From the IMG/VR virus record IMGVR_UViG_3300029554_000001: DNA of 64,000 bases. One strand, given 5' to 3'. This stretch comes from a virus. Below are positions 1-64,000 of the stretch, piece after piece. Position 1 is the stretch's first letter. The number at the start of each line of letters is the position of its first letter. Position numbers and translations under genes: made by a program. The notes beneath the pieces are model-generated. The model had not been told where the DNA came from. It worked only from the letters and a program-made list of their open reading frames with translations, and did no database searches.

Positions 1-28
1 TTGATTATGAGACTATTATTTTTATAAT
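1..28 (+). promoter_or_regulatory. sigma70-like promoter
   Basis: TTGATT-N16-TATAAT at the window edge. Confidence 0.35.
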
Positions 29-39
29 AGAGGTGTAAC

Positions 40-558
40 ATGGACAATTTCTGGAAGACATCACTGGAAAATAAGAAGAAAGAATGGAAGACGGTTCTCG
101 AAAATAAGAAGAAAGAACTATCTGAGATTAACAAGGATTTAAATAATCTCAGAAGAAAATCTTATGATGAATATATTATGAAAGAACTCGCTCCAAAGCT
201 GATTGGGAATTGTTATATTCATCGGGGACATTATATTATGATTGTTCAACCTCCCAAGTTGTTAGAAGGAAGATGTGAGGTTAACTATTCTTCTTCATGG
301 GGTTGTATTGAGATTAACAATTTTGAAGATGAAACACCTTATGGTTGTTATACAGATTCAGAAATTGATGTAGCTCCTTATTATAATGAGGACATTGATT
401 TGTTTTTCCTTTTAAATTATCCGAAAAATTTTGACCATTTTCAGCCTATTTCTCGTGACGAGTTTTACGCCAAAATGGATGAAGCGATTTGCGAGTCTAA
501 AAAGAGGGTTGAAAATATGTTGAAAAAGGTAAATCCGCGCAAATTTTACAGGTTTTAA
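40..558 (+). CDS. hypothetical protein (172 aa)
   Basis: Open frame, SD-like AGAGGTG just upstream of ATG, TAA stop; no family recognised. Confidence 0.6.
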   Translation: MDNFWKTSLENKKKEWKTVLENKKKELSEINKDLNNLRRKSYDEYIMKELAPKLIGNCYIHRGHYIMIVQPPKLLEGRCEVNYSSSWGCIEINNFEDETPYGCYTDSEIDVAPYYNEDIDLFFLLNYPKNFDHFQPISRDEFYAKMDEAICESKKRVENMLKKVNPRKFYRF

Positions 559-602
559 TGTCAAAAATAGGTCAAAAACGAGTAAAAAGAGGTAAATAAA
601 AT

Positions 603-1631
603 ATGTTTTTTAATAAGTCTAAAAAAAACAATCCTGTCGAAAACAATCCTATCGAATATGAATCTTACCCTGCATCTGGTGTAGATTTTGAAGAATCTTC
701 CAGCGAATCTTACACGAATAATCTTCCTAATCATACAGTTATCAACAATCGTACTTGGGGATATGAAAAAATGGAAGATGTACCTTTTCCTGTTGGAGAA
801 GATTGGGAATGGATTGATTGTTACAAAGCTCTTTATAAGAACTATTATGTTTCTAATGACAAAGTAGAATATGTAGGTCCTAATCAAAACTTTGCATACG
901 AACTTAACAGAGTCTATTCTTTACCAGAAGAAGGAGAATTTAGTAAAATTGATTACTGTGGCAATGGCTTTCATGCTTGTTTAACTGTAAAAGATGTTTT
1001 AAATTGGTATAATTACATTTCTTATGATGCATTTGTTGTTGATAATTATGGGTATAATGTTGCTGTTAAATTAACTGTTGTTGCTAAAGCAAAACTTTTA
1101 ATTAATAAAAAAGATTTGGCAAATTGCTATGGTAAAACTGAACTTGACAATGGTAAAATTGTAGGAAAAGCTATTATCTTAACGGGGTTTGTTAATCCAA
1201 AAGAAGTTTATGATAACCGAAAAGAAGATAGATATTGGAGCCTTGACATTCTTAATGGCTACGCTTGTGATTATTTAAAAGCCATCTGCAAAAAAGAAGG
1301 CATTAATCTCAATGTTTTAAACAAGTTAATCAAAAAGCTTGCAATTACTTTCCCCTACTATGAGAAAATACTTGGCTTTATTGATGATAAAAATATCTCT
1401 ACAATGGCTTATATCAACGCTATGTTAGATGCATATCGTATTAATAGTAAAGAAATTTATCAAGTTTTAAATCAAAATTATGGTAAAGTATTGACGGAAG
1501 AAATCATAAATAACCTTGACTATCAATTTGCAATGCGTTTGGCTGACAATGATGATGCTTATAACAGAAGCTTATCTGTAGCTGAAAAAATGCAGATTCT
1601 TTATTCTCATCAGATGATTTCTAAAAAATAA
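603..1631 (+). CDS. hypothetical protein (342 aa)
   Basis: Long ORF with SD-like AGAGGT upstream; GNGFHAC motif that I cannot assign to a named family. Confidence 0.65.
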   Translation: MFFNKSKKNNPVENNPIEYESYPASGVDFEESSSESYTNNLPNHTVINNRTWGYEKMEDVPFPVGEDWEWIDCYKALYKNYYVSNDKVEYVGPNQNFAYELNRVYSLPEEGEFSKIDYCGNGFHACLTVKDVLNWYNYISYDAFVVDNYGYNVAVKLTVVAKAKLLINKKDLANCYGKTELDNGKIVGKAIILTGFVNPKEVYDNRKEDRYWSLDILNGYACDYLKAICKKEGINLNVLNKLIKKLAITFPYYEKILGFIDDKNISTMAYINAMLDAYRINSKEIYQVLNQNYGKVLTEEIINNLDYQFAMRLADNDDAYNRSLSVAEKMQILYSHQMISKK

Positions 1632-1643
1632 ATTAATAAGTAG

Positions 1644-1672
1644 TTGACAAATTCGAAAGAGTATGTTAATAT
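1644..1672 (+). promoter_or_regulatory. sigma70-like promoter
   Basis: TTGACA-N17-TAATAT. Confidence 0.55.
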
Positions 1673-1679
1673 AATAATA

Positions 1680-1805
1680 AGAACTGTGGTACAATTTACC
1701 TCCTTATAATAGACTGGATTTGCTAATAAGGCCACCTCCTTTTTCGTATTTTGTTCATGTTTGTTTCCTCTAAAAACAAATTTTGTACCACAGTTCTTTT
1801 TTATT
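1680..1805 (+). ncRNA. candidate ~125-nt small RNA or structured leader
   Basis: Promoter 1644-1672. The transcript would start at the 5' arm of a long-range stem (AGAACTGTGGTACAA 1680-1694 / TTGTACCACAGTTCT 1782-1796) followed by a T-run. Contains two CCTCC (anti-SD-like) motifs. Confidence 0.35.
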
Positions 1806-1826
1806 CCTTTGCAAAGGAGCTTACCA

Positions 1827-2036
1827 ATGAGATTGAATGATGTATCTCTAATAGGTTTTGCTCTTTATCTTTTATGTGGGCTTGCAGTAACATATAATGT
1901 TTATAATTGTCCTGCTAATAAAAATGATAAAGAAGTAACCTTGTTGCATTATTTAACTTTGATTTTTTGTTGGCCTATTGCTCTTGTTATGGCAGCAATT
2001 TATTGGGTTAAGATTCAGAGTGAAATAAGAAAATAA
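1827..2036 (+). CDS. small membrane protein (69 aa, two hydrophobic segments)
   Basis: ATG preceded by AAAGGAG. Track ORF 1761.. starts at TTG inside a hairpin-forming leader, so I shortened it to the SD-linked ATG. Confidence 0.5.
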   Translation: MRLNDVSLIGFALYLLCGLAVTYNVYNCPANKNDKEVTLLHYLTLIFCWPIALVMAAIYWVKIQSEIRK

Positions 2037-2056
2037 AAGAAAATTAAATAAAGCTC

Positions 2057-2085
2057 TTGACAACAGACTCTTTTTGGTTTATACT
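2057..2085 (+). promoter_or_regulatory. sigma70-like promoter
   Basis: TTGACA-N17-TATACT. Confidence 0.6.
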
Positions 2086-2122
2086 ATTAATAGTAAATTA
2101 GACTGAAAGGAGTCTTTTCTAT

Positions 2123-5475: not shown

Positions 5476-5691
5476 ATGTATATTCCAAAAAGTGATAGAT
5501 AGATATCTTTACTTCCTTTTACTGGTTGTGATGAAAAGAAATGCCCATGGAAGGATTGTGTAAGACATCCTGAAAGTGGATTTACATATAATTCTATAGG
5601 GCATTTATCTTATCTTTGTAAAAAATTTAAAGAAGCCCCAAAAGAAGTTGAAGAAGTAAAGGAGAAAGAAACAAAAACAAATGATTCTTAA
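5476..5691 (+). CDS. hypothetical protein (71 codons) with in-frame TAG at 5500-5502
   Basis: AGGAGA-4 nt-ATG; the frame is open to TAA 5689-5691 except for a single TAG (codon 9). It fills an otherwise empty 230-nt gap. Confidence 0.5.
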
Positions 5692-8747: not shown

Positions 8748-9779
8748 ATGGCAACTGTTTAGTATCATTATGGTAAAAATAATTCTTTGCTTCGTTGGTA
8801 TCATCCTATTGTAAGAGGCGTGACTTATAATAATGTGGTGGTAATTGATTGGCCTAAAAGCGAATTAAAGAGCGCAAGTATTGATATCTGTACTCAACCA
8901 AAGCTAAGTCCAGAAAAAATGTATAACCTTTATGGCTATAAGCCTGATATTGTAACAAATGCTTTCTTCTTTGATACTGCTAGCGGAACTTCTATCTGGA
9001 ATTTAAAAAGTAATAACACTGTTTATGCCAAGGATGGCAATTTCTCTAATGGCTGGGGTATTACAAATTCTGGAAAGATTATGAATGGCGTATTTAACAA
9101 TGGCGTTGGTTGGAGAGATTTTGGCACAGAATATCCTGCTTTGTTTAAAAATAAGCAGCCTCAATCTGTAAAAAACTATGCTGACATTGACTATGAAGCT
9201 AAAAGACAGATGTTCGGTTGGACAAAGACAGATGGCAATCCTAAGAATGAAAAGTATTTTATTGTTTCTGTTGTGTCTGGTGGTATGAAACTTTCCACTG
9301 CTCAAAACCTTATTAAATCTCTTTTCCCTGATGTAGACTATTGTTGCAATCAAGATGGTGGGAATTCTACTTATACAAACTTTGAAGGAAAACGCCTTTC
9401 TGCATCTGGTTGGTTAAGACCTGTTGATTCTATTCTCGCTTTCTGGCTTCGCTCTAACGCTGAAAGAGAAAAAGCAGAAACAGAAGAAAAGAAGCAAGAT
9501 AAGGCTAACAAGAAAGAAGAAAATCGTCCTAAGAAAACTGGTTATCGTTGTCAGTTAGGAGCTTTTAGTAATTCAACTCGCGCAATTACTTATAGAAATG
9601 AAATTAGAACTCTTACTGGCGTAATTGATTATTCAACTGCTTTTTGTATTCAAGACCCAAAAACTAAGCTCTATAAAGTTCAAGTAGGATTCTTTGCTAA
9701 AAAATCTGGTGCTGAAAAGGTTAAGGCAGATTTAGCTGAAAAGGGATATAATTGTTATATCTGCTATGTGGAGGAATAA
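8748..9779 (+). CDS. phosphodiester-glycosidase (NAGPA)-like domain + C-terminal SPOR domain protein; putative peptidoglycan-binding hydrolase; in-frame TAG at 8760-8762
   Basis: GGAG-5 nt-ATG at 8748; the frame joins track ORF 8787.. through TAG (codon 5). NAFFFD and NQDGGNST motifs (NAGPA-like). C-terminal YRCQLGAF...YKVQVGFF looks SPOR-like. Confidence 0.6.
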
Positions 9780-10156
9780 TGAAAATTTTTGATACTTGTC
9801 TTAAAATTGAAGAAATTTTAAAAGGTTATCTTATAGCTTCTAATAAAACAAACGACAAAAAGAAATCTGAATATTATAAACATGAAGCTTACAGGTTAAA
9901 TTTTACTACGAGAGAACTTGATTTATTTTATAACTGGGGCTTTTCTAATCTTATTTATGTACCCCATCTAAATCATTGGGCTTGTGTAATGCCTAAAGAC
10001 TATAAATATCTTAATTCTACTTCTTACCCCTATTCCAAAGAAGACCCTCCTATTATCTTTGTAAGTGGTAATGTTGATAGTGTATTAGATGAATATTTAA
10101 GCGAATTAGATGAATATTTAAACGAGGAAAAAAATAATGAACGAGAAAAAGTATGA
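9779..10156 (+). CDS. hypothetical protein (125 aa)
   Basis: TAATG overlap with the previous stop; the track start 9752 has no SD. Confidence 0.55.
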   Translation: MKIFDTCLKIEEILKGYLIASNKTNDKKKSEYYKHEAYRLNFTTRELDLFYNWGFSNLIYVPHLNHWACVMPKDYKYLNSTSYPYSKEDPPIIFVSGNVDSVLDEYLSELDEYLNEEKNNEREKV

Positions 10157-10442
10157 AGTAATTTCTGATATTACCTCTCCTATTGATTAGGAGATTGCAG
10201 ATTTTATTCAGCGTATTATTGACCAAGATGAAACTCTGGCTACTTTAACTGATACTTTCTTTATCAGTTATGACTATGAATATGAAAATGTTTATATTTG
10301 TACTACTTATCCACAATATTTAACTGTAATTAATCACCAGCTTTTTAAAGATTTATGTGATATAATTAATGAATATTACGGATTTTCTGTCTTTGTTAGA
10401 AAAATTGATTCAATTATTAGCATTAAATCTAAGGAAAACTAA
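10137..10442 (+). CDS. hypothetical protein (101 codons) with in-frame TAG at 10188-10190
   Basis: GAGGA-8 nt-ATG; open to TAA 10440-10442 apart from one TAG (codon 18). It fills a 365-nt gap in the ORF track. Confidence 0.5.
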
Positions 10443-52304: not shown

Positions 52305-52484
52305 TTATTCCTGCTCTTTTTCTATTGTGTACAAATACTGCTTTCGCTTTTCTTTGTACTGCTTATTGATTTTGTACCGATAATTGCCATGAGTCTTACG
52401 CTGGATTCCTTCACAGCGGTCATAGTACATACCATCGTACTGGGGATACTCTGTGATAGCATTGTTAGGTGTACGTTTAGACAT
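52305..52484 (-). CDS. hypothetical basic protein (59 aa)
   Basis: GGAGGG-8 nt-ATG 52484, ATGTCTAA overlap with the upstream stop. The C-terminal EKEQE codons overlap a plus-strand terminator hairpin. Confidence 0.5.
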   Translation of the reverse strand: MSKRTPNNAITEYPQYDGMYYDRCEGIQRKTHGNYRYKINKQYKEKRKQYLYTIEKEQE

Positions 52485-54816: not shown

Positions 54817-54864
54817 TTTCTGAATTTCCTTTCATTTTTAAATTAGTTGATTATGTTGGCTGAG

Positions 54865-55215
54865 TTATTCTTCATCTTTCCATTTGTCATATTCGGGCAT
54901 AGGTTCAACTCCTTCCATTTCTTTTGTTTTTGGATTCCAATAAATTCTTTTGCCACACACACTAGGAGAATAAAAATTATTGCGCCACTCCTTAGTTGCT
55001 TTGTGTTCTGCTCCCATTTTTACAATTAAAACAGGTAAAACAATGAAAATTAATGTGAATAAGTCCACAACGGTAATAGCAATTACTGGGGTAAAAACAA
55101 TGATTACTGGAATATTATAACCGCCAATGTATTTGATTATACACATAACAACTGTAGCTACAACAAGGATGTAATTAAATGTAGCTCTGATATTATTGTT
55201 ATTATTGTTATTCAT
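54865..55215 (-). CDS. membrane protein with poly-Asn N-terminus (116 aa)
   Basis: AAAGGAAA-8 nt-ATG 55215; three hydrophobic segments. Confidence 0.55.
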   Translation of the reverse strand: MNNNNNNNIRATFNYILVVATVVMCIIKYIGGYNIPVIIVFTPVIAITVVDLFTLIFIVLPVLIVKMGAEHKATKEWRNNFYSPSVCGKRIYWNPKTKEMEGVEPMPEYDKWKDEE

Positions 55216-55312
55216 TTCTAAATTTCCTTTCTTTAAAGTGGAGAGGGTATATTTCAACCCTCTCCTATTTTGTTGTTAATCTGATGAGAATTTATAGATA
55301 AGTAATTAAGAA

Positions 55313-55825
55313 TTACTCATAATCTTCCTCACAATCCTCATCTTCATCCTTGAAATCATCATACTTACCTGCTAAGTCCTTACGAAGAGCATTGACTGCA
55401 CGAGCTTCAAGGAGAGCCTTAAGAGCCCGTTCATCGAGTTCACAATCAATATCACGAGTGTTGCAGATTTCCTCACCAGCTTCGTCAAACAAAGCTTTCT
55501 TTTCGTAGCTGAGGACACAAGGATAAGTGATACCATCAACCTTAACTTCGAGGACTTCATCAGGGTTGATTTCCTTCTCATTCATAGAGGACTCAAACTG
55601 GGCCTGAGCCATAACCTCCATGACGAGAGCCATGCCAGTCTTGTCACTGTTATTAACAATACGCTGAATAACAGCAAGACCAGCTTCACGGTCGCGGTCA
55701 TTGACAGAACCCATGCAGCCGCATTTAATTCCGTCGATATAAAGGAATTCCATGTTAGTGCTGTTTTCCTTCATGAGCTGGACGCGATTGAGGGACTTCT
55801 TGGTGTTGATGTTGATGTTAGCCAT
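55313..55825 (-). CDS. hypothetical protein with highly acidic C-terminus (170 aa)
   Basis: AGAAAGG-8 nt-ATG 55825; the track N-terminal extension lacks an SD. Confidence 0.6.
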   Translation of the reverse strand: MANININTKKSLNRVQLMKENSTNMEFLYIDGIKCGCMGSVNDRDREAGLAVIQRIVNNSDKTGMALVMEVMAQAQFESSMNEKEINPDEVLEVKVDGITYPCVLSYEKKALFDEAGEEICNTRDIDCELDERALKALLEARAVNALRKDLAGKYDDFKDEDEDCEEDYE

Positions 55826-55934
55826 AATAGACCTTTCTCTCGTGGGTTTTAATGTCTTTTTCCTTGACAAATTTATTGAGCTTAAAGGCTCATTAAAGTG
55901 CAGGATATATTTCAATCCTGCGCTCTATCAACCT

Positions 55935-56141
55935 TTACGGCTTTTCAATCAGGTCTTTTATTTGAGCTCTTAAACAAATTAAAGTGCCGATTCTTGTGCA
56001 ACAATAACTAATATCTGCATTATTACCTTGGGATTTAGCTTCTTTTGCATTTTCAATTTCAATGTCCATCGCTTGTAACAACTCATACCTTGCTTGCTTG
56101 AGGAAATAGTCTGCTCTACCCTGATGAGTCTTGTTATTCAT
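55935..56141 (-). CDS. hypothetical protein (68 aa), paralogue of 56157-56342
   Basis: AAAGGAG SD; shared CT(R/E)IG(T/V)L(I/V)..(R/K)...(I/L)I(E/K) block. Confidence 0.55.
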   Translation of the reverse strand: MNNKTHQGRADYFLKQARYELLQAMDIEIENAKEAKSQGNNADISYCCTRIGTLICLRAQIKDLIEKP

Positions 56142-56156
56142 ATTAATTGTTCTCCT

Positions 56157-56342
56157 TTAGAGTTCTTTGATGATATCATTTGCATAATTTTTCAGTGCTA
56201 CAAGAACACCGATTTCCGTACAAATTGGCTCGATATTACTCTCAGGATTAAAAGCGATACGGTCTTTCAATCTCTGAGTTTCCTCTTCGATTGCTTTCTG
56301 AAGAAGATATTCAGTACGGTTGGTTAGATAAGTTTTATCCAT
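56157..56342 (-). CDS. hypothetical protein (61 aa), paralogue of 55935-56141
   Basis: AAAGGAA SD. Confidence 0.55.
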   Translation of the reverse strand: MDKTYLTNRTEYLLQKAIEEETQRLKDRIAFNPESNIEPICTEIGVLVALKNYANDIIKEL

Positions 56343-56388
56343 AATTTTAATTCCTTTCTTAATTAAAATGCAAAATATATTTTAACCT

Positions 56389-56715
56389 TTAGAAGTTAAG
56401 AGCAGGGACAGTAAGCAGATACATATTCCAGTAATCCCAATTTTTGTTAAGTTCTTTTAAAAGATGAGAAGGGCTGATTCTCCAATCAGGAGATGTAGGG
56501 ACACCATTATCTTCCAATTGGTCAACAAGTTTAATCTTGTTAAGAAGAAGAAATTCTTCCAGTTTCTCCTTATTGATTTTATTGAAGCCATCTTTCTGAA
56601 TACATACAGCCCACATAATATTCTCCACAACTGTTCTATGGTTGGAAGAATAAACAGGGTAGAAATTGACTCCATCATGGGCAACGAGGACGTAGTTATA
56701 AGTCTGATTAGTCAT
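56389..56715 (-). CDS. hypothetical protein (108 aa)
   Basis: GAGGAGG SD within the end of the upstream gene. Confidence 0.6.
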   Translation of the reverse strand: MTNQTYNYVLVAHDGVNFYPVYSSNHRTVVENIMWAVCIQKDGFNKINKEKLEEFLLLNKIKLVDQLEDNGVPTSPDWRISPSHLLKELNKNWDYWNMYLLTVPALNF

Positions 56716-56717
56716 AG

Positions 56718-56882
56718 TTAAAAATCCTCCTCTTCCTGAGCGTCAGTAGCTTCAAAATCATCAGACCAAGTAATATCTTCTTTACCATAGCCCTCGACCT
56801 TGGCAAAAGCATCATTTTCAGATTCGGCTTCAACCTGAACAAAGCCATAACGAGCAAACGTGACATTGTAAATCTTTTTCAT
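56718..56882 (-). CDS. hypothetical acidic protein (54 aa)
   Basis: AAAGGAAA SD; below the track cutoff. Confidence 0.45.
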   Translation of the reverse strand: MKKIYNVTFARYGFVQVEAESENDAFAKVEGYGKEDITWSDDFEATDAQEEEDF

Positions 56883-56917
56883 AGTATTATTTCCTTTCTT
56901 AATTCAGATGTTTAAAA

Positions 56918-57220
56918 TTAGATTTCGATTTCAAAGATTTTGCCATCCCAGTTATCATGGTTAGTAGTTTCAGCCCATGCACAAGTACCCTCGAAGTTGT
57001 TCTCGTCATCGAAAATGTCATTATCAATGAGAGAATCAATAGCTTTTTCAAGCTCTTCTTTTGTAGTGACAACATACTTATTATAATCATCTGCATCAAG
57101 ATGCCGACAAGCCTCAAGAAACAAATTGAACAAGTGAATCTGAGCTTTCTCCATGGTATCAAAGAAATAAGGATGACCAATCTCACGTTCGCAAGTATCA
57201 GTGACCATAAACTTCTTCAT
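56918..57220 (-). CDS. small acidic protein, paralogue of 49195-49497
   Basis: AAAGGAAAG SD; first gene after the minus promoter at 57312-57340. Confidence 0.65.
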   Translation of the reverse strand: MKKFMVTDTCEREIGHPYFFDTMEKAQIHLFNLFLEACRHLDADDYNKYVVTTKEELEKAIDSLIDNDIFDDENNFEGTCAWAETTNHDNWDGKIFEIEI

Positions 57221-57311
57221 AATTTTCTTTCCTTTCTTAAATCACAAATGTTGTTTAGTTCTCATCAATGCAAAAGCAACTTGTATCAGAATCAACTTTA
57301 TTATTGGTTAT

Positions 57312-57340
57312 ATTATACTTTCCTTTCTTAATGGTGTCAA
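57312..57340 (-). promoter_or_regulatory. minus-strand sigma70-like promoter upstream of 56918-57220
   Basis: Reverse complement reads AATACTTGACA-N17-TATAAT. Confidence 0.6.
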
Positions 57341-57368
57341 GTATTTAAAAAGAAATTTTACAAACTAC

Positions 57369-57397
57369 TTGACAAGTGTTGTGATTTGTGTTATATT
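57369..57397 (+). promoter_or_regulatory. plus-strand sigma70-like promoter inside the minus block
   Basis: TTGACA-N17-TATATT, TGT extension; divergent from the minus promoter 57312-57340. Confidence 0.55.
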
Positions 57398-57398
57398 A

Positions 57399-57640
57399 CA
57401 CTCATCAAGCAAGGTATGTAACTTTTACTTGATGAGTGTAGGTTTTACAATACCTGTAACTGTGGATTAGTTACGATGGTACACGATACGAACGACCGAG
57501 ATTTGTCTATCCATATCAACATGTAAAATTTTCTACATATTAATTTCTCCTTTCGTGAGTAATTATGTAAACAGGCTTTACAGGAGTCTGGTGTCTTAAG
57601 TAAGACTGGTAGTTAGTAGCTACCAGTCTTTTCTCTTTTA
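57399..57640 (+). ncRNA. predicted antisense RNA covering peptide ORF d
   Basis: Promoter 57369-57397; 5' hairpin ACACTCATCAAG...CTTGATGAGTGT; terminator 57603-57629 plus T-run. Confidence 0.4.
57467..57538 (-). CDS. ATG-TAG small peptide, member d: MXKILHVDMDRQISVVRIVYHRN
   Basis: AAAGGAG-8 nt-ATG TAG. Aligns with member e but is less hydrophobic (possibly decayed). Confidence 0.35.
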
Positions 57641-58570
57641 CTTCTTATAAACCATAAAGGTGAGAAGATAATCACGAATCTTTTCAGCGGGATGTCCTTC
57701 ATGCTCTTCAATCTTGTCCTGAGCAACACGAACAAACTCATCACAGCTCTTATACTGCTTAAGGTTCAGCAGAAAATAGTTGAATGCTTTGGTATCCTCA
57801 CAGTGCTTGTAGCAAGCAGAAATTCCTGCCAACATGCGCTGAGTATAAACCATATCATCCTTCCAACCAGTCCCCTGAAGAACAGCGAACACAAAACGAA
57901 GAGCGTTTTCACCATCGCGTTTAACAATACGATACAGCTCTTCAATTGCATTGATATTGTTATAGCGGTTAATGGTGCTATTGCGATTGGTCTTAACAGT
58001 CAGACCAAATTCCTTTGTGACCTGATTGATAATTACTGCTGTAGGCTTCTTGGCACAAAGTTCAGCTTTATATCTTTCATAGCCACGAAGATTGGTCTTA
58101 CCCTCGTTCTGAGTAGCAAACAAATCTGCTTCTTCTTCCAGAGTAAGATTGATAAATACTTTGCAAGTGATAGCATAGATGGGGAAGCCTTTACTCTGCA
58201 TATAAAGCAGAGCACTCAAGGTATGAGCCCCATCCATAAGAAACAGATGCCAAGTATTACCAACTTTACGAATAGAAGCCGCTTTAATTTCAACCTTGTT
58301 GATATTAAAGTTGTTGGTAATTTTAGCTACTTCATAGTTTTTGGGTTCGCGCTGATAGTGCAAGTCAATTTCAGGCATAAAAAGAGGAATGTCTCTAATA
58401 GCCCAGTTACGACCATCTTCTCTCTTTTCAATCTCCCTTTCCACAGAGAGCTTAAAGGCATAAACGGTCTTGGACTGTTCATTGGTGATTGCTTTGGGCT
58501 TAAGTGCATCGAACAGGACTTCACTGACGGACTTTTCGTTCTTGATGTTGGTGAGATTAATCTTCTTCAT
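57638..58570 (-). CDS. ParB/sulfiredoxin-fold (ParB-like nuclease / DGQHR-like) domain protein
   Basis: YQREP...FLMDGAHTLSAL resembles the ParB N-terminal-domain core (DGxHR-type); AAAGGAA SD. Tentative. Confidence 0.45.
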   Translation of the reverse strand: MKKINLTNIKNEKSVSEVLFDALKPKAITNEQSKTVYAFKLSVEREIEKREDGRNWAIRDIPLFMPEIDLHYQREPKNYEVAKITNNFNINKVEIKAASIRKVGNTWHLFLMDGAHTLSALLYMQSKGFPIYAITCKVFINLTLEEEADLFATQNEGKTNLRGYERYKAELCAKKPTAVIINQVTKEFGLTVKTNRNSTINRYNNINAIEELYRIVKRDGENALRFVFAVLQGTGWKDDMVYTQRMLAGISACYKHCEDTKAFNYFLLNLKQYKSCDEFVRVAQDKIEEHEGHPAEKIRDYLLTFMVYKK

Positions 58571-58613
58571 GATTCTAAATTCCTTTCAAGTTAAAAAAGT
58601 TTGTAGTTATCAC

Positions 58614-58642
58614 TTGACAGATATTATCAAGTGTGCTAAGAT
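58614..58642 (+). promoter_or_regulatory. plus-strand sigma70-like promoter inside the minus block
   Basis: TTGACA-N17-TAAGAT. Confidence 0.5.
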
Positions 58643-58643
58643 A

Positions 58644-58885
58644 AACACAAGTAGAAAGCCTACACTCTCTACTTGTGATGCAATTAATACGGATTAATTA
58701 CGATTGTAAATGATGAAGACTATTATTATAGACCAATAATAGTCAACTGCTAAGATTTTCTACATAGCAAAACTCCTTTCTAATTTAATAATACATTAAT
58801 TCATTGTAGGCTAAATTAATGTGCGAGTGAATAAGTTGGGCTTAAACACTCTATTGAGGGATGGAAGTTATTTTCCATCCCTCTA
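58644..58885 (+). ncRNA. predicted antisense RNA covering peptide ORF e
   Basis: Promoter 58614-58642. 5' hairpin CACAAGTAGA-loop AAGCCTACACTC-TCTACTTGTG. Distal hairpin 58856-58883 has no clear T-run. Confidence 0.35.
58694..58765 (-). CDS. ATG-TAG small peptide, member e: MXKILAVDYYWSIIIVFIIYNRN
   Basis: AAAGGAG-7 nt-ATG TAG; hydrophobic core SIIIVFII. Confidence 0.45.
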
Positions 58886-58892
58886 ACAATGT

Positions 58893-59087
58893 TTAAACTC
58901 TTTCAACCTTATAAGGCTTGCAAGCAACAACATCGAAATTGTTTACAAGCCAGTCAGGTTTGGTTTCTTTAGTATTAAGGAATTTACAAACAATGTTTGC
59001 AAGCACTTCACTGTTAAATACAGTTTTTTCCTTCATACTCATTGTAACTGTTACGGATTTTCCGTATTTGTTTGTAATCTTAAACAT
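58893..59087 (-). CDS. hypothetical protein (64 aa)
   Basis: GGAGG-7 nt-ATG 59087, overlapping the upstream stop (ATGTTTAA). Confidence 0.5.
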   Translation of the reverse strand: MFKITNKYGKSVTVTMSMKEKTVFNSEVLANIVCKFLNTKETKPDWLVNNFDVVACKPYKVERV

Positions 59088-59394
59088 GCCACACCTCCGT
59101 CTTGATGCCCTTACCGTTATAATAACGACGAGCACCATAATTGGCTCTGTCACTGAAGCACTCAGCACAAGGAATTAATTCCTTACGCTTTCCCTCCTTG
59201 ATTTCCTTGAGTGAAAGATTGAAGCACTGTTCAACCTCACACTTATCACACATCTTACAGGATTTACCCTTGCAAATGTTTTCGCAGAAGTTGTTCTTAA
59301 CTTTGCAGAGATGCTTAATACCCCAAGAGGAATTCATCTCAGCTAAGGTCTGGTCGAGAGTGTAGTTATGACCTATAACACTAATCTTTTTCAT
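59080..59394 (-). CDS. Cys-rich protein (104 aa)
   Basis: AAAGGAG SD; CKVKNNFCENICKGKSCKMCDKCEVEQC. Confidence 0.6.
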   Translation of the reverse strand: MKKISVIGHNYTLDQTLAEMNSSWGIKHLCKVKNNFCENICKGKSCKMCDKCEVEQCFNLSLKEIKEGKRKELIPCAECFSDRANYGARRYYNGKGIKTEVWHV

Positions 59395-59457
59395 TTTACT
59401 TTGACTCCTTTCAAGTCTGTATTAAATTTAATTTTAAATTTGTCTTAAGCTATATGG

Positions 59458-59790
59458 TTAGAAACAAATACGTTTCTTTTTGATTTTGGTAAGCATCCAA
59501 CACCAAGGATTTCCAAAATCATCTTCAAGAGGAGTAACCTTAATGGTTACAAGCACCTCAGTACTAAGATGCTCAAGGATATAATCCAAATTCTTAAGAG
59601 AGAAAACATATCTTTCTTTTGTATCATCTTTAGTGCTTTTTGCGCACCATTTAATGATTTCTTTCAAGCCCGAATCAATCAGGCAGTTCAGGTTCCCATA
59701 AGTGTCAAGCGTTTTATTAAGAGAAGGTGCTTCTAAATGGGTAGGATTGTTGGTGAGAGAGCGAACGGTGTTTTTTAATTTCTTGGACAT
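59458..59790 (-). CDS. hypothetical protein (110 aa), weak paralogue of 36799-37113
   Basis: AAAGGAAA SD. Confidence 0.6.
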   Translation of the reverse strand: MSKKLKNTVRSLTNNPTHLEAPSLNKTLDTYGNLNCLIDSGLKEIIKWCAKSTKDDTKERYVFSLKNLDYILEHLSTEVLVTIKVTPLEDDFGNPWCWMLTKIKKKRICF

Positions 59791-59826
59791 TTTCTTTATT
59801 TCCTTTCTTTTGTTGATTATTGATAT

Positions 59827-60018
59827 TTACACTTGCTTAAGATACTTAAGGTTTAATTCTAATTTGGAATCCATTGTTAAGCCATTTTCGCGCTTGATTC
59901 TGCCACACAAGTTATTCAAAGCTTGTTTCTCAGAAGAAGCCGTGGTATAACCAGAAAAATGGCAATAATAGTTATACCATCTGGTTACGGGACCATCGTA
60001 GTAATATTTGAGTTTCAT
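59827..60018 (-). CDS. hypothetical protein (63 aa)
   Basis: AAAGGAGG-7 nt-ATG 60018. Confidence 0.5.
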   Translation of the reverse strand: MKLKYYYDGPVTRWYNYYCHFSGYTTASSEKQALNNLCGRIKRENGLTMDSKLELNLKYLKQV

Positions 60019-60037
60019 ATATACACCTCCTTTCAAC

Positions 60038-60283
60038 TCAAATAAAATTGAAAACTTTACACTCTTCATGGACATAGCCTCCAAGAACTTCAGGACAGGA
60101 CTGGAAATAACCAGATGCATCCTGAATGTGGATGAGAATGGTATCGTCCATATTTAATGAACCTTTGCGCACTTTTGCTCTAAGCGAGCGACGAATTCGT
60201 TCCCAAATGTTGCACTTTTCTTCGAATACATCATAGATGACTTTGCCATCCTTTTTGACATATCCACTATACCATCTTGTCAT
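60038..60283 (-). CDS. hypothetical protein (81 aa)
   Basis: AAAGGAGGG 12 nt before ATG 60283. Its SD/5' end overlaps the plus-strand promoter at 60290-60318. Confidence 0.5.
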   Translation of the reverse strand: MTRWYSGYVKKDGKVIYDVFEEKCNIWERIRRSLRAKVRKGSLNMDDTILIHIQDASGYFQSCPEVLGGYVHEECKVFNFI

Positions 60284-60289
60284 AACTAC

Positions 60290-60318
60290 TTGACACCCTC
60301 CTTTTGTTGTGTTATAAT
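60290..60318 (+). promoter_or_regulatory. plus-strand sigma70-like promoter inside the minus block
   Basis: TTGACA-N17-TATAAT, TGT extension. Confidence 0.6.
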
Positions 60319-60319
60319 A

Positions 60320-60655
60320 CCTAATAAGAAAAGTGGTTGACCAATCCACTCTTCTTATTAAATTGATTAGTCTAAGTCTAACTTAGATATATCTATCTGG
60401 AAGAATTCAATCAGCTATTCAACACTTAGGTGTTGCATGTACCAATTAAATTCAAACTCAGAAGTGATATACTACTTCAGAATAGAACCAATCTTTGCTT
60501 TATTACTAAGACTATCCTACATGAATTCCTCCTTTCTTTTAACTCGTTAGTGTTGTGACTAACTTGTTATTCGTTATCTTATTGGTCAGATAAGATAGAG
60601 TCTTAGCTGCAACTAAGCACTCTATGAAGGGTAGGAGCATATGTTCCTACCCTTT
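60320..60655 (+). ncRNA. predicted antisense RNA covering ORF f
   Basis: Promoter 60290-60318; 5' hairpin ~60324-60359; distal hairpin 60629-60652 followed by TTT. Confidence 0.35.
60367..60522 (-). CDS. ATG-TAG ORF, member f (51 codons; TAG at codons 2, 17, 36)
   Basis: AAAGGAGG-5 nt-ATG TAG. Same module architecture as the small peptides, but the product is longer and not hydrophobic. Confidence 0.35.
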
Positions 60656-60663
60656 AACAATGC

Positions 60664-61005
60664 TTAGATGTTATCCCACTGATTAGTGATGAAATTAAAG
60701 CATCGAACAGTTCCACCAATCTTTTTCTCCCAGCGGGGGTTGTTTTTGTTCAATGTATAAGTGGCAAGGCGACTTTTAGCAGCCGTGACAATAATATCAT
60801 ACTGACCGAGTTCCTGAAGAGACTTGATATAGTTCATGAGTTTGACATCATTTTCAAATTCGATGTCAATTGTTCTGGAAGCACTGACAATATCAGTGCA
60901 ATGGTCATCCACACCTTCAGGTTTCCACCCCTGTTCAAAGTGGCTGATAATAGAATCAATATCATAGATGCAGATGCGTTTAACAAACTTAACAGTGTAA
61001 TTCAT
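60664..61005 (-). CDS. hypothetical protein (113 aa)
   Basis: AAAGGAAAA SD. The stop is followed by the conserved GCATTGTTA-hairpin-ATAGAGTGCTTAG junction. Confidence 0.6.
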   Translation of the reverse strand: MNYTVKFVKRICIYDIDSIISHFEQGWKPEGVDDHCTDIVSASRTIDIEFENDVKLMNYIKSLQELGQYDIIVTAAKSRLATYTLNKNNPRWEKKIGGTVRCFNFITNQWDNI

Positions 61006-61034
61006 TTCTTTTTTCCTTTCTGTTTATAAAAGTC

Positions 61035-61063
61035 TTGACAAGCACAATTTCATGTGTTATACT
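61035..61063 (+). promoter_or_regulatory. plus-strand sigma70-like promoter inside the minus block
   Basis: TTGACA-N17-TATACT, TGT extension. Confidence 0.6.
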
Positions 61064-61064
61064 T

Positions 61065-61295
61065 GTTATTAGAATAAGAGAAGTGCCTACACACCTCTCT
61101 TATTAATAAGCTTTTATTCTTCTTAGAAATTATAGTTCTTTAGAATTACAACTACAACGACGTTTAAAGAATAATTGACTGAAATAATCTTCTTCATTGT
61201 TTTACCTCCTTAAGAAGATAAAAGCAAACAAGGATGTAGGTCCTTATTCACTACAGAGGAGAGATGTGGGGATATCTCTCCTTCTGTTATATTTG
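61065..61295 (+). ncRNA. predicted antisense RNA covering peptide ORF g
   Basis: Promoter 61035-61063. 5' hairpin AATAAGAGA-loop AGTGCCTACACACC-TCTCTTATT. Terminator 61258-61282 plus TTCTGTTATATTT. Confidence 0.4.
61123..61197 (-). CDS. small hydrophobic peptide, member g (no TAG): MKKIISVNYSLNVVVVVILKNYNF
   Basis: AAGGAGG-7 nt-ATG AAG. Closest relatives are members h, i and j. Differs from i by 11 synonymous and 4 non-synonymous codons. Confidence 0.5.
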   Translation of the reverse strand: MKKIISVNYSLNVVVVVILKNYNF

Positions 61296-61326
61296 AGTAG
61301 TTTAACGACTTGCTCAGGTCGAGAGG

Positions 61327-61728
61327 TTAGTTCTGATAATCGTCAGAAACTAATACCCATTCTTCCCCATTACTATCAATAAGATGAATGGTTGTTCTAT
61401 CCTCACTGATAGTTACATTCTGAAGATTAGAGAACCAATCCTCAGTTGTTGTGTAGCTATCCTCAACTCCTTTGTTATAACCAGCGTTATATGCACCAGT
61501 TACGTCTTCGTTAGTGAAGACTTCTGCTGGTGCACTTTTACTGTAATCAATATGGTCAAGAATAACAGCGATTCCAATCGCAAGGACAACTACCAGAATA
61601 AACATAGCTCTGGGATTCATGCTCTTATTTTGAGCTATTGCTTCAAGATTAATAACAAGACCGTACACAATCATGATAGCAACAATAGCAATAGCAACAA
61701 TGGTAACATTGGTAATATTGATAAACAT
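61327..61728 (-). CDS. membrane protein (133 aa)
   Basis: The second ATG (61728) has proper SD spacing; the track start 61734 is 1 nt from the SD. Two N-terminal TM segments. Confidence 0.55.
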   Translation of the reverse strand: MFINITNVTIVAIAIVAIMIVYGLVINLEAIAQNKSMNPRAMFILVVVLAIGIAVILDHIDYSKSAPAEVFTNEDVTGAYNAGYNKGVEDSYTTTEDWFSNLQNVTISEDRTTIHLIDSNGEEWVLVSDDYQN

Positions 61729-61762
61729 CTTCATTTCCTTTCTGGTTTTTTACGTCTTTTCC

Positions 61763-61791
61763 TTGACAAACAATTATTTATGTGTTATTAT
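61763..61791 (+). promoter_or_regulatory. plus-strand sigma70-like promoter inside the minus block
   Basis: TTGACA-N17-TATTAT (TATAAT 3 nt further), TGT extension. Confidence 0.55.
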
Positions 61792-61837
61792 AATGATGAG
61801 AAGGTTGCCTACACAACCTCCTTAATGCATAATTATC

Positions 61838-61912
61838 TTAGAAGTTGTGATTCTTCAAGATAATCATACTAACTATGCCGAGAACATAGTCAATAAATGT
61901 TATTTTCTACAT
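61838..61912 (-). CDS. ATG-TAG small peptide, member h: MXKITFIDYVLGIVSMIILKNHNF
   Basis: AAAGGTG-5 nt-ATG TAG. Confidence 0.45.
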
Positions 61913-62056
61913 TTTATCACCTTTTCATAATTTAATACTTAATTATAAATTATGTAGGTAATCTATAATTAAGCAGACTGCTTATTGCGACTAAGCACTC
62001 TATAAGATAGAGGAAGATACTCTTATCTTCCTCTACCCTAACAATGCTTATTATGC

Positions 62057-62131
62057 TCAGAAGTTATAATTCTTCAGTATGGCAACTGTTACAACATTAA
62101 GAGCATAATTTACGGAAATCGTTTTCTACAT
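62057..62131 (-). CDS. ATG-TAG small peptide, member i: MXKTISVNYALNVVTVAILKNYNF
   Basis: AAAGGAGG-8 nt-ATG TAG; in tandem with member h. Confidence 0.5.
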
Positions 62132-62219
62132 GATGATTTCCTCCTTTCCGAGTGCGATTTGGATTACTAAGCACTCTATTAAGCCCACCATCAATTACGA
62201 TGATGGGCTTTAACAATGC

Positions 62220-62390
62220 TCAGATAGGGATACAAATAACATATCCATCATCCAAGAATCGGGGATAAAGCTTATTCTTATTGAGAAGCTTATCTCCAAT
62301 CTCTTTTGCTTCCTCCTCATTAGAGGCAGACACGAATACTGTATCACAACCACTAATGATGGAAGTGATATATTTGACTTTGTATGTCAT
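62220..62390 (-). CDS. hypothetical protein (56 aa)
   Basis: AAAGGAA SD; below the track cutoff. The stop is followed by the conserved junction motif. Confidence 0.5.
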   Translation of the reverse strand: MTYKVKYITSIISGCDTVFVSASNEEEAKEIGDKLLNKNKLYPRFLDDGYVICIPI

Positions 62391-62417
62391 TTTCTTTTAT
62401 TCCTTTCTATAAAAGTC

Positions 62418-62446
62418 TTGACAAATACAACTTTATATGTTATACT
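62418..62446 (+). promoter_or_regulatory. plus-strand sigma70-like promoter inside the minus block
   Basis: TTGACA-N17-TATACT, TGT extension. Confidence 0.6.
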
Positions 62447-62447
62447 T

Positions 62448-62680
62448 GTTGTTGTAGTAAGAAAGATGCCTATACACCTTTCTTACAAAAAGAGTGATTA
62501 TTAACCTTATCAGAAGTTATAATTCTTTAGGACGAGAATCGTAACAACATTTAAAGTATAATCTATTGTAATTATCTTCTACATTTATTACCTCCTGAAG
62601 ATTGATAGAAGTACTTATCAATATAGGTTAATAAGCACTACAAAACATTGGGACACTTGTTCGGAAGTGTCCCTTTTGCT
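62448..62680 (+). ncRNA. predicted antisense RNA covering peptide ORF j
   Basis: Promoter 62418-62446. 5' hairpin GTAAGAAAG-loop ATGCCTATACACC-CTTTCTTAC. Strong terminator GGGACACTT-GTTCGG-AAGTGTCCC 62650-62673 plus TTTT. Confidence 0.45.
62510..62584 (-). CDS. ATG-TAG small peptide, member j: MXKIITIDYTLNVVTILVLKNYNF
   Basis: CAGGAGG-6 nt-ATG TAG. Confidence 0.5.
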
Positions 62681-62739
62681 TTGTTTGGAGAAAGGCTATT
62701 TGTTTATACTCGTTAACCTTCCAGAACGAGTTGGATGAG

Positions 62740-62880
62740 TTAAATGTGGCGAATGTACCACATGAAACCCTTCTTACCTCCTGTGCATCTGTAGATGATG
62801 TACATGGAAGTAAGGCTGATAACACCAGCGATAGCAATGATACTACCAATGATGCTAACAATGAAGATAGCTTCCATCAT
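62740..62880 (-). CDS. small single-TM protein (46 aa) with basic C-terminus
   Basis: AAAGGAGG-10 nt-ATG 62880; MMEAIFIVSIIGSIIAIAGVISLTSMYIIY then RCTGGKKGFMWYIRHI. Confidence 0.5.
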   Translation of the reverse strand: MMEAIFIVSIIGSIIAIAGVISLTSMYIIYRCTGGKKGFMWYIRHI

Positions 62881-63003
62881 GTTCTTTCTACCTCCTTTCA
62901 TGATGGACTGCTGACTTTGGTTTCCCATCATCAGTGCCGTAGTAACCAACTACGACAGACAAGAGAGATTATTAGTCTCTCTTGTTTCGGGGTTGTGGAG
63001 AGG

Positions 63004-63327
63004 TTATTCCTTAACAGGAATAAGACCTCCTTCGATGGTGTAATAGGCGTACTCCTTGTCACCATCCTTATCAATATTGACAAGGTAGCGGACACGGGTA
63101 ACAACATCGTTGTCAGCCCACACACGGAATTCTTCCACGGAAGAGCAATCGTCTTCCACGCAGATTTCCACGTCAACGTAACCCTTGCGAGTAACATTGT
63201 TGTTGATGCGAACAGTGATTTCATCCACAGAATAGCCACCAATCGCTTCATCAGCGAAAGTGATGTCCATGTTGTTGAGGATGTTGGCGATAACACCAAA
63301 AATATTAAGAACGAGACGGTTTTCCAT
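63004..63327 (-). CDS. hypothetical protein (107 aa)
   Basis: AGAAAGG SD; first gene of the minus block within the window. Confidence 0.6.
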   Translation of the reverse strand: MENRLVLNIFGVIANILNNMDITFADEAIGGYSVDEITVRINNNVTRKGYVDVEICVEDDCSSVEEFRVWADNDVVTRVRYLVNIDKDGDKEYAYYTIEGGLIPVKE

Positions 63328-63710
63328 AATTTGCTACCTTTCTGGTTTTAACGTCTTATAACCTGACGAAATTATTGAGATTTATTAATTTCTTAACCAT
63401 TGAAAAAATGACCAAGAGATTAATTTTGAATGTTTGTGTAAATTAATTCTTAACTCTTCAGGATGAGAAGAAGCAAGGATTAATTTACACTGATGATTGA
63501 CTATTTATTCGAATGAGAACAAACAGTCAATATGCAAACCAAATGTACAAATGAATACACTTGAATTTACATTTACCTCTTAAGAAAGATTTAAGAAGTA
63601 CATAAAATCAGTTGGAAGTAGAGGTAGAAATAAAAAATTAAAAAAATTTTTCAAAAAATAAAAAAATTAAAAATTAAAAAAAATAAAAAAATTAAAAATC
63701 CCCACCCCGA

Positions 63711-63745
63711 CAAAAAAAGGATAGAAGCTATCACAGCCTCTATCC
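63711..63745 (-). terminator. intrinsic terminator (minus strand) after the partial right-edge gene
   Basis: Minus strand reads GGATAGAGGCTGTGATAGCTTCTATCC followed by TTTTTTT. Confidence 0.6.
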
Positions 63746-63753
63746 TTAAAATA

Positions 63754-63792
63754 TATTCAATTATATTATTCAATTACATTATTCAATTACAC
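63754..63792. repeat. 13-bp tandem repeat x3 (TATTCAATTA(T/C)A(T/C))
   Basis: TATTCAATTATAT TATTCAATTACAT TATTCAATTACAC, immediately after the stop of the right-edge gene. Confidence 0.75.
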
Positions 63793-63797
63793 CCTAC

Positions 63798-64000
63798 TTA
63801 CACATGCCCATCACTTATAACCCCAAGTAAATCATTCCAAAATGCCGATTCCCATTTTTTACTTCCGACATCCTTTTTACTCAATCCAATGCCATTTCTC
63901 TTGTTCGCAACATAATCTTTCATTACTCTCATTATTTTTTCGTTAATAACAAGACTTACTTTATCATTCCATAAAAATCCTTTGTATCTCTTACCTTTGT
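63798..64000 (-). CDS. 3' end of an unidentified gene continuing beyond the window
   Basis: Frame open from the window edge to TAA 63800-63798 (…KDVGSKKWESAFWNDLLGVISDGHV*). Followed by the minus-strand terminator 63711-63745. Confidence 0.45.
   Translation of the reverse strand, partial: KGKRYKGFLWNDKVSLVINEKIMRVMKDYVANKRNGIGLSKKDVGSKKWESAFWNDLLGVISDGHV

Follow-up and report, generated by a model that had tools for sequence, protein, structure and literature searches.

Predicted reading of TAG as glutamine in a common human-gut phage whose relatives carry a suppressor tRNA

Classical amber suppressors include the E. coli supE tRNA-Gln with a CUA anticodon and the psu suppressors of phage T4. 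Among gut phages, TAG is translated as glutamine in the crAss-like and Lak phages and in the large Firmicutes-associated Jade, Sapphire and Agate clades (bioRxiv 10.1101/2021.08.26.457843), and for crAss-like phages this recoding has been validated by metaproteomics (PMC9523058). Suppressor tRNAs with a CUA anticodon are common in such phages, yet Borges et al. detected one in just ~40% of the genomes recoded at TAG (bioRxiv 10.1101/2021.08.26.457843). Group I introns are described in the anticodon loops of bacterial tRNAs, as in the cyanobacterial tRNA-Leu UAA and the Azoarcus tRNA-Ile (PMC13168695).

We analysed a 64,000-nucleotide stretch of viral DNA (the window), which lies on ENA contig ERZ920262 k127_15581, whose attached gene calls are code-15-aware, and its relatives, together covering ~135 kb of non-redundant sequence from a genome of ~215 kb; the closest relative is 96.9% identical to the window's contig at the nucleotide level. 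The window very probably stems from an uncultured human-gut phage of ~212-224 kb in which TAG is translated as glutamine (genetic code 15). As judged from its sequence, this phage is very common, with one marker protein on at least 1000 public contigs, and would read TAG as glutamine via its own suppressor tRNA. The code change is real but of a kind already well described, fitting the code-15 phages (Ivanova 2014, Borges 2021/22, Peters 2022) and leaving the known picture of stop-codon recoding unchanged. Shared with those phages are in-frame TAGs aligned with Gln, a phage tRNA(CUA) (here in relatives), late structural and lysis genes that are recoded next to blocks still readable in the standard code, preferential recoding of homing-endonuclease genes, and a human-gut genome of ~200-220 kb. 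The points of agreement with the Sapphire/Jade clade are the size of the genome (~201-210 kb), the gut as its source and the partial nature of the recoding, with TAG-bearing genes forming a minority in both (27/180 here versus 26% published for Sapphire; bioRxiv 10.1101/2021.08.26.457843). A terminase fragment and a 528-aa marker had no match among 50,697 GenBank phage records.

A first-pass annotation, made from the letters of the window alone, had proposed that TAG acts as a sense or read-through codon and that six genes become continuous only if it is translated. Both proposals hold: all 11 TAGs that it listed (5500, 8760, 10188, 17913, 24636, 24807, 24861, 25570, 25591, 25687 and 26893) lie in frame in six SD-preceded genes, in segments free of TAA or TGA interruptions and closed only by those two codons, and TAG is the terminator of 0-2 of ~110 genes. 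The six genes are as follows:

5476..5691, plus strand: 71-aa gene with TAG 5500 at codon 9; same ORF on the ENA contig
8748..9779, plus strand: gene for a 343-aa SPOR-domain protein (Pfam SPOR) with TAG 8760 at codon 5
10137..10442, plus strand: 101-aa gene with TAG 10188 at codon 18; found by ENA and SD-aware calls
17886..18149, plus strand: third tandem paralogue, 87 aa, with TAG 17913 at codon 10; same length in the ENA call
24603..25568, plus strand: GIY-YIG endonuclease-like gene (Pfam GIY-YIG) with TAGs 24636, 24807 and 24861
25558..26919, plus strand: 453-aa gene sharing an N-terminal domain with 24603..25568, with TAGs 25570, 25591, 25687 and 26893; same length in the ENA call

These genes might instead be pseudogenes in decay, such as degenerate homing-endonuclease genes, with TAG an ordinary and merely rare stop. 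Several of them are endonuclease-like or mobile (GIY-YIG, in a region that varies between relatives), and genes of this kind often decay. However, decay would have to account for 11 of 11 interruptions being TAG although, of the stop triplets that occur off frame within genes, just 10-14% are TAG, for frames that lack any TAA or TGA interruption, for TAGs and downstream frames kept across 12-17 genomes, for the exchange of TAG with CAA, a codon two mutations away, and for the presence of a dedicated tRNA(CUA) in the relatives. We regard this explanation as extremely improbable and effectively refuted already.

At TAGs 5500, 8760, 10188 and 17913, the true start might instead lie downstream, leaving the TAG in a leader or short upstream ORF. 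Over-extended starts would indeed yield N-proximal TAGs, and TTG 8787 opens a 330-aa ORF that table-11 callers chose on sister contigs, versus 343 aa in the code-15 ENA call. This is nonetheless unlikely, as every upstream ATG follows a GGAG/AGGAG-type SD and was picked by two independent callers, relatives share the peptide that precedes the TAG, and TAG is demonstrably decoded elsewhere in the genome. In 5476-5691, the TAG, the preceding peptide MYIPK..R and the AGGAG SD are kept in 13 relatives, while TAGs 8760 and 10188 are each invariant in 14; for all three genes, TAG, upstream peptide and SD persist in every one of the 13-14 carriers per gene. At 17913, the similarity between paralogues that had been noted across the TAG is borne out by tblastn, which aligns residues 1-87 with the second paralogue (E = 3.6e-7), so that the alignment begins at residue 1, and the TAG is kept in both relatives that have the gene (L011 and L012). 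With TAG set as sense, an SD-aware caller recovered the start of the first-pass annotation for five of the six genes; for 17886-18149 it placed the start upstream, at 17754. The ENA contig calls likewise match five (5476-5691, 8748-9779, 10137-10442, 17886-18149 and 25558-26919), and the call for 24603-25568 begins later, at 24699.

In the GIY-YIG gene, the Pfam domain spans residues 133-216 (23.2 bits, cut-off 22.6). The absence of any in-frame start between TAG 24861 and this domain is confirmed, the first being ATG 25122, within the domain itself. An orthologue in a relative (L010, 84% identical) has CAA at 24807. The N-terminal domain is common to this gene, 25558-26919 and their homologues. 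Homologues of 25558-26919 in five relatives (28% identical) are unbroken for ~460 residues; TAG occurs in them as many as 9 times, TAA and TGA not at all. TAG 26893 in this gene may be a sense codon or a leaky stop.

Stop-codon usage points the same way. Under table 11, gene ends in the window comprise 86-91 TAA, 18-19 TGA and 1-2 TAG; TAG terminates 0-2 of the 107-110 genes called, all such cases staying open in frame, and these ends are confined to the 24.6-26.9 kb stretch, where the frame runs on. If the TAG share is taken as 10%, the chance of zero TAG ends in 105 genes is P <= ~1.6e-5. The earlier figure of ~125 CDS was too high (107-115 genes were called), and of its stop counts the TAA majority stands, while the "about two dozen" TGA ends come to ~19. 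Re-prediction with tables 11, 15 and 4 favours table 15: coding density in the window rises modestly, from 79.8% (table 11) to 83.4%, and in its plus-strand block from 80.2 to 86.2%, whereas table 4 lowers the window value to 77.2%. The gain is strong in the late region of a relative, where density climbs from 57.2 to 87.8% and mean gene length from 118 to 292 aa. For this widespread gut phage, whose sister assemblies in public databases are annotated with table 11, that annotation truncates or splits genes, mildly in the window and severely in the late region.

Within this genome, the window makes up the part that is poor in TAG, with ~1.0 TAG per 1000 codons versus ~6 in two relatives (L020/L043). 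Its second part forms one large block:

36300..64000, minus strand: block of 48 genes that lack TAG both within their frames and as a stop, read identically in codes 11 and 15

In this block, which includes two PcfJ-like genes as well as DUF932 and ParB-like DUF6551 genes, 7283 codons contain 190 CAA/CAG and no TAG, the stops are 43 TAA and 5 TGA, and density is unaffected by table 15. It is a large code-neutral segment, from which TAG is absent both as sense and as stop. Beyond the window, the late region as seen in a relative encodes a terminase with an intein and lysin-like genes at ~6 TAG per 1000 codons, and flanking late genes have 4-7 TAGs each. The very low density in the window (~1 per 1000 codons) would suit a stop that is still genuine and that host machinery reads through at a low, programmed level, with no reassignment. 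Yet neighbouring genes, the terminase included, contain 4-12 TAGs each, so the product of leaky read-through would be negligible; TAG has moreover been purged as a terminator, and a phage tRNA(CUA) is present in the relatives. To read-through of this kind we give next to no credence.

The first-pass annotation held that the inserted residue could not be read from the window. Comparative evidence does give an answer, glutamine, and one site of the window itself agrees: opposite TAG 25687, Gln is conserved in 7/7 aligned homologues that lack TAG there; the N-domain alignment places TAG 24807 opposite Gln as well. In orthologues at least 75% identical among the related genomes, CAA or CAG accounts for 28 of 42 differences between TAG and another codon; no non-Gln codon opposite a variable TAG occurs more than twice, and all non-Gln codons together make up about one third of the 42. 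Near-identical homologues show Q<->TAG polymorphisms. A flanking DUF4379 gene carries 11-12 TAGs, and between its orthologues (86% identical) the variable TAG sites are CAA in 4/4. When this 11-12-TAG gene is compared with distant cellular homologues (<=60% identical), Gln is the most enriched residue opposite TAG (6.9-fold) and the plurality residue at three TAG sites. On these comparative grounds, TAG is very probably decoded as glutamine.

The tRNA search agrees. A tRNA(CUA) gene was found by ARAGORN at a syntenic site in 25/25 related genomes, including the 96.9%-identical one (L050:9823-9893), and thus in relatives alone; the window and the 10 kb on each side of it contain no tRNA. It adjoins tRNA-Arg(UCU) at the end of an array of 10-15 tRNA genes, ~19 kb upstream of the window, and the matching site on the window's own contig, for which the tRNA is known from relatives alone, is at ~105.3 kb. 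With density gain, TAG/Gln exchange and this tRNA in agreement, the proposal of a code-15-like, amber-recoded gut phage is sustained; the checks of coding density, homologues at the TAGs and suppressor tRNA, run or approximated, all came out on its side. The Rfam tRNA model scores the genes at 36.8-55.9 bits (gathering score 29). Three unrelated tRNA(CUA) bodies alternate at this one conserved locus. In type A the 1:72 pair (U.U) is weak and is combined with G73, both as in E. coli tRNA-Gln; type B has the acceptor stem G1-C72/C2-G71/G3-C70 with U73, resembling tRNA-Gly in its identity elements; and type C combines a long variable arm of class II with G73, resembling tRNA-Ser. Because these bodies look unlike tRNA-Gln, the charging enzyme and a uniform inserted residue are assigned by inference.

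Decoding as another residue (pyrrolysine, serine or glycine), or as one that varies with the tRNA type, must be weighed here, as ARAGORN labels the gene "Pyl" by its anticodon, type B has a Gly-like stem with U73, and type C a Ser-like class-II arm with G73. It is nevertheless most unlikely: CAA and CAG dominate the substitutions whichever of types A, B and C a genome carries, and no Ser or Gly codon recurs opposite variable TAG sites in the related genomes. Pyrrolysine decoding would call for a pylT-type tRNA, whose D and T loops are atypical, along with pylS/pylBCD genes and TAGs in genes of the methylamine methyltransferase type. It was rejected, since the tRNAs score as standard ones, their D and T loops are ordinary, and Gln codons are what TAG is exchanged with; no pyl genes occur among the Pfam annotations of flanking genes (~135 kb of ~215 kb seen).

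In 10/25 genomes the anticodon loop of tRNA(CUA) is split by a 219-nt group-I-like insert, which comes after U and ends in G. The insert matches the full Rfam Intron_gpI model at 34.9 bits (E = 2.6e-7), a score below the gathering threshold of 50, and the same tRNA also occurs as an allele that lacks the intron. This resembles the group I introns of bacterial tRNAs (~220 nt, in the anticodon loop after U and ending in G), but the host gene here is a phage nonsense suppressor, its splicing is predicted, and it is seen in relatives, outside the window. Unlike in other code-15 gut phages, three unrelated tRNA(CUA) bodies occupy one locus with 10/25 split, a situation for which we found no description in the literature; the suppressor ends a long tRNA array instead of lying beside the lysis cassette; and the part read here holds no RF2 or aaRS "code-change module", with no release-factor gene (GGQ motif) in ~135 kb of non-redundant sequence. 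As with supE and psu, a tRNA with a CUA anticodon would insert Gln at UAG against RF1, but here suppression appears to be a strategy fixed in the genome, which has purged TAG as a terminator, in place of a mutant allele that rescues nonsense mutations. A genome population with replaced or intron-split suppressor tRNAs offers material on the timing of the code switch and on tRNA charging.

The mechanism by which the phage would switch codes follows the pattern and model published for recoded gut phages (bioRxiv 10.1101/2021.08.26.457843), to which this genome adds a clean, well-sampled case of switching in mid-infection. After infection, the phage tRNA(CUA) would be transcribed and, in ~40% of genomes, first spliced; a host enzyme would then charge it with Gln, and the charged tRNA would compete against host RF1. 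Since it must be expressed, charged and beat RF1, full-length products of TAG genes would appear only after the suppressor has built up. Genes needed before that point would have no TAG as sense or stop and would therefore be read identically in both codes. This code-neutral early set would comprise the minus-strand block in full (36.3-64 kb) and the greater part of the plus-strand block. In the window, a TAG among the first 5-18 codons would delay the GIY-YIG gene and its neighbour, the gene for the SPOR protein, which binds the cell wall, and three small ORFs. Past the window, as seen in a relative, the late genes (lysin-like genes and the intein-bearing terminase among them) are densely recoded.

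More speculatively, and in our judgement with the odds against it, TAG could be a positional gate beyond a rare synonym for Gln, with the suppressor swaps and intron acting as a splicing timer or reflecting a defence arms race. An early TAG would then give a cheap abort of translation before the suppressor is present, and the group-I-like intron in 40% of alleles would put the code switch on an RNA-splicing timer as well; alternatively, the tRNA dynamics might stem from an arms race against host defences that target tRNAs. TAGs are skewed to the 5′ ends of genes, with 25% in the first tenth versus 10% for CAA/CAG (KS p = 2e-5), and the first TAG lies no more than 30 codons from the start in 18/27 TAG-bearing genes.

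The first-pass annotation had proposed that TAG is a sense or read-through codon and that the genome is recoded in the manner of code 15, in which TAG specifies Gln; both the observation and this reading proved right, with Gln as the predicted residue. Six genes had been described as continuous only if TAG is translated (5476-5691; 8748-9779, a SPOR-domain protein; 10137-10442; 17886-18149; 24603-25568, a GIY-YIG protein; and 25558-26919). Every TAG reported within them lies in frame, in segments bounded by TAA or TGA alone, and a Shine-Dalgarno-aware gene caller with TAG as a sense codon recovers the proposed start in five of the six, while for 17886-18149 it picked an upstream start at 17754 instead. 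Similarity crosses TAG 17913 as described: the alignment of the third tandem paralogue to the second begins at residue 1. In 24603-25568, residues 133-216 are confirmed as a GIY-YIG domain, and no start codon separates it from TAG 24861, the first in-frame start being ATG 25122, within the domain itself.

Under table 11, the standard bacterial code, the window contains 107-110 genes, so that the earlier tally of ~125 CDS comes out somewhat lower here; these genes end in TAA (86-91), TGA (18-19) or TAG (1-2), and all of the TAG-terminated ones lie within 24.6-26.9 kb, where the frame plainly runs on. Because TAG makes up 10-14% of the off-frame stop triplets inside genes, the presence of zero genuine TAG terminators in ~105 genes is improbable (p <= 1.6e-5), and TAG is indeed never a convincing stop. 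The coding density of the window rises modestly when table 15 replaces table 11, from 79.8 to 83.4%, while in the late region of a relative the same change takes density from 57 to 88% and the mean gene from 118 to 292 aa. Code 4, with TGA as sense, was rejected, as TGA is a regular stop and coding density in the window drops to 77.2%. Raw ORF coverage with alternative stop sets and a flanking-coding-score test per stop type were both too noisy to discriminate. Two weak ORFs with low coding scores also carry TAGs, at codons that are not conserved in relatives:

60367-60522, minus strand, 51 codons with three in-frame TAGs
35899-36234, plus strand, 89 aa ending at TAG 36166, or 107 aa with read-through

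Exact-protein look-ups place the window (33% G+C) on ENA contig ERZ920262 k127_15581, a 215,558-bp sequence from a human-gut metagenome, with window position 1 at approximately contig position 124,699. Code 15 had already been applied to this contig by an automatic gene caller; its stored gene calls, evidently the output of a code-15 model, match the first-pass coordinates for five of the six TAG genes. Sister contigs are numerous (205-224 kb), and their table-11 calls give shortened versions, such as a SPOR protein of 330 aa versus 343 aa. A flanking 151-aa protein is unchanged on at least 1000 contigs, which makes this uncultured gut phage a very common one; GenBank TPA names on this protein include 'Siphoviridae sp. 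ctLqe90'. GenBank phage records yielded no DNA match to the window (megablast, 20 kb) and no protein match (tblastn with a 528-aa marker and a terminase fragment), and no single repeated DNA motif was specific enough for sampling the genome. Related genomes were taken from IMG/VR around four anchors.

Although the inserted residue had been considered unreadable from the window, codon exchange and homologue alignment together identify it, at the level of sequence comparison, as Gln. Across 180 non-redundant genes with orthologues at least 75% identical, there are 42 distinct events in which TAG is exchanged with another codon, 28 of them involving Gln codons (CAA 15, CAG 13), with every other codon appearing at most twice. 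CAA is two mutations away from TAG, and the pattern is thus the one predicted by synonymous drift among three Gln codons, not by nonsense mutations. Pyrrolysine was rejected on this substitution spectrum and on the shape of the tRNA. Homologues of 25558-26919 in five relatives (28% identity) remain open for ~460 codons with up to 9 TAGs and no TAA or TGA, and near-identical pairs of them differ by Q versus TAG at five sites. Aligning the TAG genes with homologues, as had been outlined, set TAG 25687 opposite a Gln conserved in seven paralogues or homologues that lack TAG at that site, and the closest orthologue has CAA in place of TAG 24807. The DUF4379 zinc-ribbon gene directly upstream of the window carries 11-12 TAGs, and orthologues 86% identical to it have CAA at 4/4 variable TAG sites. 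In cellular homologues with no more than 60% identity, the residue showing the strongest enrichment opposite the TAGs of this gene is Gln (6.9-fold), which is also the plurality residue at three of the sites, at one of which it is found in 82 of 108 homologues.

The window and the 10 kb on either side contain no tRNA genes. Stepping outward with chimeric protein queries led to an upstream array of 10-15 tRNA genes whose last members are tRNA-Arg(UCU) and, immediately after it, tRNA(CUA); synteny puts this site ~19 kb before window position 1. The search for a tRNA(CUA) gene, one of the checks set out for the code-15 reading, found one at the syntenic site in 25 of 25 related genomes. In the closest relative, which shares 96.9% identity with the window's contig across ~10.9 kb of alignment, the gene lies at L050:9823-9893 and scores 36.8 bits against the Rfam tRNA model (gathering score 29). 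A phage-encoded suppressor is predicted for the window's phage from these relatives, and the codon-substitution evidence suggests that a host enzyme would charge tRNA(CUA) with Gln. A regex scan of 1.77 Mb of loci, which together represent only ~60% of the genome, found no GGQ motif of release factors. The tRNA array is preceded by a holin gene (Phage_holin_6_1), and the suppressor locus is adjoined by a 121-aa gene with a Pfam Acb2/Tad1 hairpin domain (anti-CBASS/Thoeris sponge family):

L089:11099-11464 and equivalents, ~18 kb upstream of the window, Acb2/Tad1 gene

Three unrelated tRNA(CUA) bodies alternate at this one locus between conserved flanks in the 25 relatives (L045-L058, L088-L098):

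Type A, U1.U72 mismatch, G73 and hypervariable stems with compensatory changes, 16/25 (10 intact, 6 split)
Type B, Gly-like acceptor stem and U73, 4/25
Type C, long variable arm, 5/25 (1 intact, 4 split)

In type A, the stems show many compensatory changes between genomes, while the acceptor stem and flanks are constant. With each of the three types, the genomes show exchange between TAG and Gln codons, albeit in small numbers. A 219-nt insert splits the anticodon loop in 10 of the 25 genes (for example L047:9578-9871, L058:8586-8878 and L045:8580-8890), following U35 in type A genes and U33 in type C genes, and its last base is G. This insert matches Rfam Intron_gpI over the full model length at E = 2.6e-7, its 34.9 bits falling short of the gathering score of 50, and the predicted spliced product is exactly as long as the type C gene that lacks the intron (L090).

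Judged from predicted start codons, TAG is also concentrated near gene starts, with 25% of TAGs versus 10% of CAA/CAG codons in the first gene decile (KS p = 2e-5), and 18 of the 27 genes containing TAG have their first one no more than 30 codons from the start. Such a bias would fit a gate at which translation is cut short early. Better conservation of N-proximal TAGs than of internal ones was not supported (invariant in 10/12 vs 20/32, p = 0.28). The 5′ bias and the variability of the suppressor locus, both largely outside the window, might be the sole aspects of specialist interest. TAG recoding in phages is already well established, with Ivanova 2014 reportedly among the studies that established stop-codon recoding, and this is a well-documented further case with no novel mechanism. 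The phenomenon has been documented by Borges et al. (bioRxiv 10.1101/2021.08.26.457843) and Peters et al. (PMC9523058).

The frequency of in-frame TAGs varies along the genome:

Window, ~1.0 per 1000 codons
9.4 kb upstream of the window, 3.4 per 1000 codons
Late region past the window's right end, in a relative, ~6 per 1000 codons

Among the products of the late region are an intein-containing terminase and a lysin-like protein. In the published model, early genes are written in the host code, late and selfish genes await the suppressor, and homing-endonuclease genes are preferentially recoded (bioRxiv 10.1101/2021.08.26.457843), and the distribution here fits its early/late division. A relative has, beyond the window's right end, a TAG-rich terminase-large-subunit-like gene that contains an intein with Hint and LAGLIDADG motifs (L020:18435-20636); a TAG-rich GIY-YIG gene (L020:20811-21626) follows or interrupts it. 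At ~6.5-8.4 kb past that end, a 630-aa protein (L005:1587-3479, minus strand of the locus) matches Pfam PF05183, a eukaryotic-type RdRP family, and is possibly a YonO-like single-subunit RNA polymerase; its gene has one TAG near the start and precedes a LAGLIDADG gene.

Gene calls divide the window into two blocks:

1 to ~36.2 kb, plus-strand genes
36.3 kb to past the window end, minus-strand genes

Recognisable genes are two PcfJ-like genes, DUF932, ParB-like DUF6551, TnpB/IS605 OrfB and the SPOR-domain protein. The minus-strand block (36.3-64 kb) has no TAG in 7283 codons, versus 190 standard Gln codons, and no TAG stops, and is identical under codes 11 and 15. Its PcfJ-like, DUF932 and ParB-like genes are characteristic of the leading regions of plasmids or ICEs. 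G+C is 35-39% in 36300-64000 versus 27-33% in 1-36250, and the Gln preference is reversed (CAG 127/CAA 63 versus CAG 70/CAA 158), a contrast that suggests a different origin or expression regime for the minus-strand block. The endonuclease-like genes with TAGs are closely followed by an intact TnpB gene, where the G+C of the window is at its lowest (26.7%):

27636-28739, plus strand, TnpB/IS605 OrfB, 367 aa with HTH_OrfB, OrfB_IS605 and Cas12f1-like TNB domains

Three direct copies of TTTGATATCATT with 11-bp spacing (32819-32852) occupy an ~860-bp gene-free gap (32444-33305), and an AT-rich palindrome, TAATTATAATTA, lies at 34493-34510 within the gap 34357-34816; these are possibly regulatory or origin-like repeats. 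The motif TTAAATACTTGACA, in which an A/T-rich element precedes a -35-like TTGACA, recurs before genes on both strands (6538, 12988 and 23772, plus; 51639 and 57348, minus) and is probably a host-sigma70-type early promoter.
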